Source: Candidatus Liptonbacteria bacterium
Lineage (GTDB): Bacteria > Patescibacteriota > Minisyncoccia > UBA6257 > 2-01-FULL-56-20
Length of the DNA: 36,125 nucleotides
Assembly: GCA_016204385.1 (NCBI GenBank)
Contig: JACQKW010000006.1
Coordinates: forward strand, 1-36,125
Direction of reading: 5' to 3'
Shown here: in pieces, positions 31,649-33,441 of the stretch
Layout: the number at the start of each line of letters is the position of its first letter
Position numbering within the stretch: position 1 is the first letter of the stretch
Made by a program: the position numbers and the translations under genes
Notes under the pieces: model-generated
The model's input: the letters and a program-made list of their open reading frames with translations, nothing else
Told to the model about the DNA's origin: nothing
Databases searched by the model: none

Positions 31649-32206
31649 ATGGGCTCGGCAAGAAGGATTTGTGTGTTTTGCGCTTCGGCAAGCAGCACCC
31701 CATCTGAATACATCACCCTTGCAGAACAATTCGGTTCGGAACTCGTGGCACAGGGTTTTGATTTGGTTTGGGGCGGCTGCAAATCTGCAGCAATGGGAGC
31801 TCTTGCACAAGGAGTACGAGCTCGCGGCGGTAGGGCCGTCGGGATCATTCCGGGTTACATGCGGGAAGAGGGTCTCGCGTACGAAGAGGCCGACGAGCTT
31901 ATTGTGGTGAGCAACCTTTTAGAACGGAAGCTCAGGATGAAGGAGCTCTCCCATGCATTTGTTGCTCTCCCTGGGGGCATAGGTACGCTTGACGAGCTCA
32001 TTGCGCAGTTGGCAGATGCCGTCGTTGATTCGAGGCGCGGTGTTGTTCCCGCGAAAATCGCGATTTTGAACTGGGAGGGTTTTTACGCGAATCTCGAGCA
32101 ACTTCTTGAGGGTCTCTACGCCCGGGGCCTCGCTCACGGTTCCTACCGCACGCTCTACCGAATTTTGCCCACCATAGAGAACGTCTTTTCCTACCTGAAG
32201 CAATAG
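31649..32206 (+). CDS. LOG-family nucleotide monophosphate phosphoribohydrolase
   Basis: ICVFCAS, LVWGG, ERKLRM, LPGGIGTLDEL. Confidence 0.9.
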   Translation: MGSARRICVFCASASSTPSEYITLAEQFGSELVAQGFDLVWGGCKSAAMGALAQGVRARGGRAVGIIPGYMREEGLAYEEADELIVVSNLLERKLRMKELSHAFVALPGGIGTLDELIAQLADAVVDSRRGVVPAKIAILNWEGFYANLEQLLEGLYARGLAHGSYRTLYRILPTIENVFSYLKQ

Positions 32207-32238: not shown

Positions 32239-32264
32239 GTCCCGCTCATGCGCGGGACTTTTTT
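32239..32264 (+). terminator. Intrinsic terminator
   Basis: GTCCCGC/GCGGGAC stem followed by T6. Confidence 0.8.
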
Positions 32265-32344
32265 ATGAAGCAAAGCGAGACAGATTTTCGAAAACGCAAG
32301 AAAAGTTTTTCAGATATCATAATCATTCCTTTACTATGCTATAC

Positions 32345-32378
32345 TAAAGTTAAACTGACGATCGTTAATCTGACTTTA
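32345..32378. repeat. 34-bp palindrome, copy 1, directly after an extended -10
   Basis: TAAAGTTAAACTGACGATCGTTAATCTGACTTTA; TGCTATACT at 32337-32345. Confidence 0.85.
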
Positions 32379-32391
32379 TGAACGGACCCTC

Positions 32392-32979
32392 ATGATCATC
32401 GAGAAGGTTTTAGAGATTCTCCAAGCGGGCGCCGAAACAGCCGCTGATCTCCTGGATATCATGGCTTCCGATTATGCAACCTCGTATCGGAAAATGAGGC
32501 GCTCCATTCGCAGCGGCCCGCGGTCGTTTCAATCAAATTGGGCGGATAATTATCGGGAAGCACAGCGATTTTATTCGCTCCTGCAGTATTTAAAGCAGCA
32601 AGGTTTTATCGAGAAGACGGGTGCGAGCCGGTCGTCCGTCTGGCACATTACGAGGAAAGGGCTAAAGAAATTTTCTATTCTGAAAAAGAAGAACCAGCTT
32701 CAAAGAAGCGTTGCGCATTACGAAGGGAAGGAAGACGACAAACTTCGTATCATTGTCTTTGACGTTCCCGAGGATGAACGCGTGAAGAGAATCTGGCTTC
32801 GCTCGGCGCTTTTGTCTCTCGGTTTCACTCTGCTTCAGAAGAGCGTGTGGGCGGGAGCGCGAAAAATTCCCCAAGATTTTTTGGAGGATCTTCAAGAGAA
32901 GAGAATGATGCCGTATGTTCATATCTTTGAAGTCAGTCGCCTGGGCACTGTGAAAGGAAATCTAACGAGACCGGTTTGA
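32392..32979 (+). CDS. PaaX-like protein: winged HTH plus Cas2/VapD-like ferredoxin domain
   Basis: FYSLLQYLKQQGFIEK...WHITRKG; IIVFDVPE...RIWLRSALLSLGFTLLQKSVW. Confidence 0.82.
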   Translation: MIIEKVLEILQAGAETAADLLDIMASDYATSYRKMRRSIRSGPRSFQSNWADNYREAQRFYSLLQYLKQQGFIEKTGASRSSVWHITRKGLKKFSILKKKNQLQRSVAHYEGKEDDKLRIIVFDVPEDERVKRIWLRSALLSLGFTLLQKSVWAGARKIPQDFLEDLQEKRMMPYVHIFEVSRLGTVKGNLTRPV

Positions 32980-32996
32980 ACTTGCATAAAGCGCCT

Positions 32997-33036
32997 ACCT
33001 AAAGTTATCTTAACGATCGTTAAGATGACTTTAGGT
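32997..33036. repeat. Palindrome copy 2 (40 bp; 34-bp core 33000-33033)
   Basis: ACCTAAAGTTATCTTAACGATCGTTAAGATGACTTTAGGT, one mismatched pair; 28/34 identical to copy 1. Confidence 0.9.
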
Positions 33037-33201
33037 TGTCGGGAGGGTCAGGTGCTTGAGAAACTGCCTTTCTGAACACCCGGTTCGCTCCCTCAATGCG
33101 TGAGGGGCAAGCCAGCGCGGTCTTCTTTCATTTGGCATTGTAATGGAAATGAACTACAATTTTCTCCAGTACAGACCGGGCTTCTTATTTGGGGGTGATG
33201 C

Positions 33202-33441
33202 GTGGGTATCCACACTGCGGAAGAACGACGTCGGCGGCGGAAAGAGAAGCTTACAAACAGAATCCTGAAATTGATGTTTCGGATTGAGGCAGAGAGCGGA
33301 AGAATTAACGGCATCATGGACCGCGGCGAACCGCCGACCGTAAGCGACATAGACACAGTACAAGAAGGCAAGGAACGAATCCGGCGACTCGGGGATCAGA
33401 TGCTAAATCTCCTTAACGAGTTCAAGGGGCTCGGAAATTAA
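33202..33441 (+). CDS. Small helical hypothetical protein
   Basis: 79-aa charged ORF ending at a bidirectional terminator; start uncertain. Confidence 0.5.
   Translation: MGIHTAEERRRRRKEKLTNRILKLMFRIEAESGRINGIMDRGEPPTVSDIDTVQEGKERIRRLGDQMLNLLNEFKGLGN

Follow-up and report, generated by a model that had tools for sequence, protein, structure and literature searches.

PaaX of E. coli and Pseudomonas (8a39, 3l09; PF20803) is a phenylacetyl-CoA-responsive repressor in which an N-terminal winged helix is followed by a Cas2-like middle domain and by PaaX_C, the domain that senses phenylacetyl-CoA. The Cas2 proteins of CRISPR systems (TIGR01573, PF09827) have a ferredoxin-like fold, and the Cas2 dimer holds duplex DNA in the Cas1-Cas2 complex. 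PadR repressors are small self-regulating dimers on palindromes. The RAYT genes are flanked by cognate, lineage-specific palindromes of ~35 bp, extra copies of which are intergenic and often lie at the 3′ ends of genes. These genes (also TnpA_REP) and their repetitive extragenic palindromic (REP) elements were reportedly treated by Nunvar in 2010 and by Bertels and Rainey in 2011. In this paper we discuss a gene of Candidatus Liptonbacteria bacterium, located in a 36,125-nt stretch of DNA (contig JACQKW010000006.1, positions 1 to 36,125; hereafter the window), which is bracketed by two related 34-bp palindromes and encodes a 195-aa protein that we call mini-PaaX. We surmise, with moderate confidence, from comparisons of genes and sites that this protein is a dimeric, self-regulating mini-PaaX repressor which binds its private palindromes as duplex DNA.

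The positions of all features are collected in Table 1. Copy 1 of the palindrome (TAAAGTTAAACTGACGATCGTTAATCTGACTTTA) begins on the last base of the extended -10-like element TGCTATACT, and 13 nt separate its end from the ATG (32392). Copy 2 (TAAAGTTATCTTAACGATCGTTAAGATGACTTTA) begins 20 nt past the TGA stop (32977-32979); it is self-complementary at 16 of 17 pairs, and its dyad reaches 32995-33038 (20 pairs, 2 mismatches). The two copies are identical at 28 of 34 positions, the mismatches being at positions 9, 10, 11, 13, 25 and 26, while the outer arms (TAAAGTTA and TGACTTTA) and the core (ACGATCGTTAA) are conserved. The coordinates, placement and degree of identity given in a preliminary description of this DNA were all confirmed. 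No match to the degenerate palindrome pattern is found in 100 dinucleotide-preserving shuffles of the window. The role of TGCTATACT as a -10 element is ambiguous, because the same bases coincide with TTACTA/TAGTAA, the outer motif of the family's sites.

The gene product is PaaX-related, but it is not PaaX. A Pfam scan of the 195-aa protein matched residues 114-185 to PaaX_M (PF20803) with 52.5 bits, the cut-off being 24. The cas2 model TIGR01573 gave 24.9 bits against a cut-off of 24.5, but over model positions 1-40 of 96 only, and PF09827 (Cas2) gave 16.5 bits, which is under its cut-off of 23.8 and again involves the first 40 model positions. The N-terminal part had no match to the Pfam PaaX N-terminal domain; its sequence matches were to Mrr_N (below cut-off) and to PadR proteins, of which 4esb was the best (E = 0.003). 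In an AlphaFold2 model (mean predicted local distance difference test score, pLDDT, of 79), helices 2-12, 17-25 and 50-69 and a wing at 73-86 make up a winged helix, which a linker helix (88-105) connects to a Cas2-like domain with the order β-α-β-β-α-β (residues 113-181). With this model Foldseek ranked E. coli PaaX (8a39; E = 2.4e-4) first among PDB entries, then the PaaX-like 3l09 and 3kfw, and then several Cas2 proteins; searching PDB sequences with only the Cas2-like domain gave nothing useful. The earlier reading of the protein as a PaaX-related winged helix plus Cas2-like domain is supported. We do not call it PaaX because it scores under the cut-off of the PaaX equivalog model TIGR02277 (22.9 versus 264.55 bits), because Pfam revealed no PaaX_C ligand domain, the protein stopping ~10 residues past the Cas2-like domain, and because there are no paa catabolic genes among the locus neighbors. 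PaaX itself is ~305-316 aa in length.

One of the characteristics shared with CRISPR Cas2, in addition to the ferredoxin-like fold, is an Asp ending the first strand (Asp124, near-invariant across homologs); another is a strand of the form Q-x-S-V-F/W. Unlike Cas2, the domain is fused to a winged helix. No Cas1 (PF01867) is found in the 605-kb, 80%-complete assembly, where control genomes were positive, and no CRISPR or tandem array is found in the window, to which the array scan was confined, the rest of the assembly lying outside it. The label "orphan" in the preliminary description was therefore right as far as CRISPR is concerned.

Homologs were drawn from genomes of the same family and order, plus metagenomes, and zero-loop palindromes with arms of at least 15 bp and no more than 2 mismatches were counted within 250 bp of the gene. 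Such a palindrome accompanies 100 of the 128 distinct homologs (upstream in 65, downstream in 75), and 40 have one on both sides; gene-specific pairs, which had been predicted for homologs, do exist. For the first 105 loci the density was 2.04 per kb in the gene flanks versus 0.126 per kb elsewhere, a 16-fold enrichment, and several of the palindromes "elsewhere" are extra copies of the same class. The palindromes have a median length of 40 bp. At most loci the end of the upstream palindrome is 0-60 nt ahead of the start codon (range 0-152), and downstream palindromes start -3 to +90 nt from the stop in most (range -37 to +203). Of the 34 central bases, a median of 31 are common to the two palindromes that flank a given gene; comparisons across loci have a mean of 15/34 and a 95th percentile of 23. 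For instance, genome G034 (1 Mb) has 14 paralogs, 12 of these with distinct private palindromes.

The family is large, with 5,385 clusters at 50% identity (profile search, E ≤ 0.001), and 156 of the order's 401 genomes contain strict matches (E ≤ 1e-20). Nearly all loci that carry organism names belong to the Patescibacteria, or Candidate Phyla Radiation (CPR); this expansion, with up to 14 paralogs in a 1-Mb genome, sets the family apart from PaaX. The closest relative is 56% identical, and the genus has a single genome. Members are named "hypothetical protein" or "Cas2" in the databases, the latter wrongly. A search of the literature on PaaX, Cas2-like proteins and palindromes in CPR bacteria revealed no description of the family or of its layout.

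It is extremely unlikely that the palindromes are unrelated to the gene, with copy 2 an ordinary terminator or both copies the sites of another factor. Copy 2 does stand at a gene end, and the genome contains 42 long palindromes of several classes. However, no T-run is present at copy 2, the sequence following the dyad being GGTTGTCGGG, and no terminator was called at 32995-33045 by the terminator scan. Nor does a common terminator, named in the preliminary description as the outcome that would undo its proposal, fit a feature that recurs across the family. The enrichment beside this gene family and the way in which the palindrome sequence shifts with the protein contradict such an explanation.

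The half-site plan of the family, read from the dyad outward, is TCG(T/C), 9-12 variable bases and (T)AGTA(A), and the full site is TTACTA-N26-TAGTAA. The operator of E. coli PaaX is TGATTC-N27-GAATCA, and PaaX represses itself by steric hindrance of RNA polymerase at its own promoter (PMC9493321). Judged from these motifs, the predicted mini-PaaX sites have the span of the PaaX operator (N26 vs N27). Both are long-span palindromes with outer hexamers ~33 bp apart, and the autorepression known for PaaX is predicted here. The sites of mini-PaaX differ in bracketing the gene, and in being symmetric and paralog-specific over the full 34-44 bp, not just in the outer hexamers. They are also twice as long as those of PadR repressors.

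When protein columns were compared with half-site positions in an unbiased scan, those that stood out belonged to the Cas2-like domain. At residue 150 (K in LQKSVW), K or R is found in 74/74 loci with a CGATCG, CAATTG or CATATG center and Q, E or G in all ten CGGCCG-centered loci (Fisher p = 3.6e-13, without correction for phylogeny). On the tree, the center and residue 150 each changed 8 times, fully concordantly, and five of five independent pairs on well-supported branches changed in the same direction (p 0.06, the minimum attainable). Residue 130 (R/K) follows half-site position 4 (T/C), with 5 pairs concordant and 0 opposite, and residue 127 (the E of FDVPE) follows half-site position 2, a relationship resting essentially on one clade. 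E127, R130 and K150 of the window protein are consistent with its own ACGATCGT center. The preliminary description had looked to the recognition helix of the winged helix for such co-variation; co-variation is present, but its clearest residues lie in the Cas2-like domain. It is reasonable to suppose that Lys/Arg150 enters the narrow minor groove at the central A·T step and is replaced at a G·C center. The Cas2-like domain appears to read the central bases, which is not a feature of PaaX, and to read sequence at all, which Cas2 does not.

The arrangement that we favor is as follows. In the protein a helix connects the winged helix to the Cas2-like domain, the ligand-binding C-terminal domain of PaaX being absent, and the protein would form a two-fold symmetric dimer via the Cas2-like domain, and not via a C-terminal helix as in PadR. 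The dimer is predicted to sit on duplex DNA at its private palindrome of ~34-44 bp, the winged helices touching the outer (T)TACTA and TAGTA(A) motifs, ~32 bp apart, and the Cas2-like pair lying on the dyad and reading the central ACGATCGT. As copy 1 abuts or overlaps the core promoter, its occupancy should repress transcription of the gene itself. Copy 2 and the two solo copies on contig C7 described below would be further sites of the same protein, with auxiliary functions such as a local sink, a loop anchor, an auxiliary operator or a roadblock/insulator, and solos beside promoters may serve as operators of neighboring genes. We infer the dimerization, duplex binding, repression and role of the non-promoter copies. 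No helical phasing, as a signature of looping, is seen in the spacing of the two copies (629-846 bp). An operator pair is the best-supported of the two alternatives that the preliminary description offered.

Control at the level of RNA is quite unlikely. On this reading both untranslated regions of the mRNA, 5′ and 3′, would carry the palindromes as hairpins, and mRNA stability or translation would be set through their binding or cleavage by the Cas2/VapD-like domain. RNase activity has been reported for Cas2 and VapD family proteins, and the coding region is closely flanked by both palindromes. Were TATACT (32340-32345) to serve as the -10, the start of transcription would fall within copy 1, so the mRNA would include both copies. 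An initial, smaller set was suggestive of the G·U wobble signature of an RNA hairpin, with a G·T excess in the downstream copies (20 v 8, p = 0.036). This signature was gone in the larger set, where G·T and A·C mismatches within palindromes, counted on the sense strand, numbered 22 v 17 downstream (p = 0.52) and 23 v 14 upstream, and where transversion mismatches were as common. A hairpin requires internal complementarity alone, but separate copies are kept mutually identical. At several loci the -10 is inside or after the palindrome, which is hence untranscribed; in several, TGnTATAAT directly follows the upstream palindrome. Fold and site geometry, moreover, match those of the DNA-binding repressor PaaX. 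The mutual identity of the copies, the lack of a G·T excess and the position of the -10 are the reasons for which we favor duplex DNA as the target.

The 34-bp pair is not private to the window locus. A scan for further copies, as the preliminary description had suggested, revealed two more on contig C7, the second a perfect palindrome, for a total of four in this genome (G000). Both solos are intergenic. A PEBP-family gene stops 38 nt ahead of the first, and an alpha/beta-hydrolase gene begins 77 nt beyond it; the second is separated by ~75 nt from a tRNA-like fragment that precedes it and by ~340 nt from a small membrane-protein ORF that follows. Copy 1 and both solos share an asymmetry, (T/C)ATAC preceding the palindrome and TGA or GCA following it, and in all three the TATACT side points away from the next gene. 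TATAC lies 5′ of three of the four copies because the window site belongs to the CTTTAGTA(T/G) outer subgroup. Rfam, at gathering and relaxed thresholds, identified next to the palindromes only tRNAs and a weak tmRNA 3′-end match.

Two further observations concern the surroundings of the second solo. The ~340 nt between it and the two-helix membrane-protein ORF are G+C-rich, with several strong hairpins and no Rfam match, and an intact tRNA-Glu(CUC) has next to it a fragment with a tRNA/tmRNA-like T-arm and acceptor.

When the genome was searched with a profile, a second, distant mini-PaaX paralog emerged (PaaX_M, 66.3 bits). It has its own 44-bp palindrome, quite unlike that of the window, which is found upstream, downstream and at one solo site. 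The upstream palindrome overlaps the start region, with TATAAT in its right arm 11 nt before the ATG, and the downstream one is 15 nt past the stop. The solo is located upstream of lemA, 43 nt before the long ORF that encodes LemA and ~76 nt before the likely ATG. TATAAT is present in both arms of this palindrome.

The preliminary description also raised the possibility that gene and palindromes form a mobile unit, analogous to a RAYT gene with its REP elements. More broadly, this could be a REP/RAYT-like selfish or domesticated system in which the Cas2-like domain, using Asp124, nicks or recombines its own palindromes as cruciforms or single-stranded DNA hairpins; we regard this as unlikely. 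That such nicking spreads the solos and moves or reshuffles a palindrome-gene-palindrome cassette is likewise an improbable proposition. The resemblance to REP/RAYT is that the gene is flanked by cognate, lineage-specific palindromes with dispersed intergenic copies. Near-identical solos occur at unrelated intergenic sites in three genomes, with no conserved targets and often at gene 3′ ends, as with REP elements, and gene neighborhoods differ among most homologs. In the metagenomic locus L050 (931-2668), seven copies of one CAATTG-centered palindrome surround the mini-PaaX gene, and a truncated gene copy (1164-1220), comprising roughly the first 60 nt, ends 7 nt before one of them. Locus L115 is a mosaic, or recombinant, in which another lineage is the source of the upstream palindrome and the N-terminus.

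Against this, the metG-tatD-gene order at the window locus is shared with a Liptonbacteria relative (48% identity) and with another lineage (39%), which makes mobility unlikely here. Paralogs within a genome are anciently diverged and all different, with no recent identical copies. Palindromes number 3-5 per genome (3 and 5 in genomes G101 and G041, respectively), not the tens to hundreds of REP elements, and they are perfect zero-loop dyads. The HUH-Y1 transposase of RAYT has no counterpart, since Pfam and NCBIfam scans of the 195-aa protein revealed neither a HUH-Y1 (IS200/IS605-like) nor a transposase domain, the fold being winged helix plus Cas2-like. No relative was found among 2.9 million viral contigs. 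The proposal of a mobile unit is accordingly not supported for this locus, given the synteny, the age of the paralogs and the viral search. The near-identical solos at unrelated sites nonetheless imply that the palindromes themselves have been copied, a REP-like evolutionary behavior, though the gene looks like a resident regulator.

A related and more specific possibility, to which we assign only a small probability, is that mini-PaaX is a site-specific nuclease or strand-transfer enzyme acting at the center of its own palindrome, copying the palindrome to new intergenic sites and reshuffling palindrome-bounded segments. The face bearing the near-invariant Asp124 would lie on the dyad, as is suggested by the co-variation of residues 127, 130 and 150 with the palindrome, the residues flanking Asp124 being among those that would face the dyad on this ground; D-x-P-E, on the other hand, is also a plain helix-capping motif, as we read it. 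If true, this would be a REP/RAYT-like system built on a Cas2 fold, with a possible evolutionary link from sequence-specific DNA handling to the Cas2 of CRISPR adaptation.

Several points weigh against a self-regulating repressor. All of the evidence for it is comparative, binding itself being a prediction. The solos do not behave as sites of a conserved regulon would: orthologs of the hydrolase in 20 other genomes have no upstream palindrome. The solos of two other genomes sit between convergent genes or at gene 3′ ends and adjoin intrinsic terminators, with no promoter there to control: the sole solo copy of a Harrisonbacteria genome lies between convergent genes just past an intrinsic terminator, and three solos in the genome of the syntenic ortholog are mostly at gene 3′ ends. 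Downstream palindromes are followed by a co-directional gene in 26 loci and by a convergent one in 22, an equal frequency for which a simple operator role is insufficient. Point mutation cannot create a 34-bp palindrome where there was none, and a plain repressor does not supply the copy mechanism that is therefore needed; the protein has no recognizable ligand domain to relieve repression. The dyad co-variation would also fit recognition of a hairpin loop, and the near-invariant Asp124 leaves a catalytic role possible.

Table 1. Features of the mini-PaaX locus and of related or separate palindromes. Positions without a prefix are those of the window; C5 to C14 are contigs.
Feature	Position	Strand	Remarks
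Intrinsic terminator of LOG-family gene	32239..32264	+	GTCCCGC-loop-GCGGGAC then TTTTTT; terminator scan
Extended -10-like element TGCTATACT	32337..32345	+	Final T is base 1 of copy 1
Palindrome copy 1	32345..32378	.	34 bp; degenerate dyad, 13/17 pairs, center CGATCG; proposed promoter-proximal operator
Mini-PaaX gene	32392..32979	+	195 aa; residues 1-105 PadR-like winged helix and linker helix, 108-185 Cas2-like
Cas2-like PaaX_M domain (residues 114-185)	32731..32946	+	Pfam, co-variation
D124	32761-32763		Cas2-like domain residue
E127	32770-32772		Cas2-like domain residue
R130	32779-32781		Cas2-like domain residue
K150	32839-32841		Cas2-like domain residue
Palindrome copy 2	33000..33033	.	34 bp; near-perfect dyad, second predicted binding site
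Promoter-like site	33132-33160		TTGGCA-17-TACAAT
Arg/Lys-rich ORF	33202-33441		79 aa
First solo copy	C7:7123-7156		
Second solo copy	C7:53299-53332		Perfect palindrome
G+C-rich region	C7:52960-53298	minus	~340 nt
tRNA/tmRNA-like fragment	C7:53400-53450	minus	L002 1612-1629
Second mini-PaaX paralog	C8:50573-51148		
Second paralog with its palindromes	C8:50526-51207		
Solo copy of second paralog's palindrome	C8:79526-79569		
Example long palindromes	C6:69888-69917, C7:109795-109836, C8:4663-4694, C14:13115-13156, C14:30480-30509		
Contig-start palindrome	C6:1-142		
Six ACGATCGT/ACGGCCGT palindromes	C7:8223-8256, C7:25608-25639, C7:27660-27695, C8:98118-98151, C8:183228-183259, C12:16909-16948		
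AACATTC(T/C)NACATTCT-N2-4-AGAATGTNAGAATGTT sites	C5:2007-2042, C5:2327-2370, C6:3632-3663, C6:60872-60903, C8:42874-42911		Also in loci L007, L009, L016, L071, L134, L159

The neighbors of the mini-PaaX gene are metG, tatD, the LOG gene (ORF 31649-32206; Pfam PF03641), a deoxyribosyltransferase-like gene and leuS. The terminator of the LOG gene is the upstream boundary of the gene-palindrome unit. Downstream, a promoter-like site precedes a small Arg/Lys-rich ORF, which has no Pfam match. The only conserved neighbors across the family are metG-tatD, which three lineages share, and a gene for a Xer-like tyrosine recombinase, which at three loci (L022, L025 and L032) stops 52-192 nt ahead of the mini-PaaX gene. 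In L100, L113, L115 and L042 a DnaA-box-like TTATCCACA directly follows the downstream palindrome, and a TGCTATAAT promoter element is located ~30 nt beyond it.

The 42 long palindromes of the genome are zero-loop dyads with arms of at least 13 bp, where a shuffled 191-kb contig gives 0. One class possesses a TTCGCGCGAA core and variable arms, the same design principle as in the ACGATCGT class, and no cognate gene was identified for it. A contig start is occupied by a perfect 142-bp palindrome with 71-bp arms and a TTCGCGCGAA-class center, which may represent either a fold-back of the assembly or a true hairpin end. Six more palindromes are ACGATCGT- or ACGGCCGT-centered with other arms, two of them inside long ORFs; no matching mini-PaaX gene is found in the 80%-complete assembly, and they are possibly orphan sites, their paralogs having been lost or not assembled. 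A separate palindrome, AACATTC(T/C)NACATTCT-N2-4-AGAATGTNAGAATGTT, recurs little changed in this genome and in several other genera and looks like the conserved operator of another factor.

CPR bacteria have very few recognizable regulators, and mini-PaaX may for this reason be among their main DNA-binding protein families. With a private site of ~40 bp for each paralog and single residues tracking single base pairs, the family would offer natural orthogonal protein-DNA pairs, and a residue-base code of this type would show the Cas2 fold being used for reading sequence. The puzzle that it poses, two sites bracketing the gene and dispersed solos without conserved targets, is directly testable on both counts.

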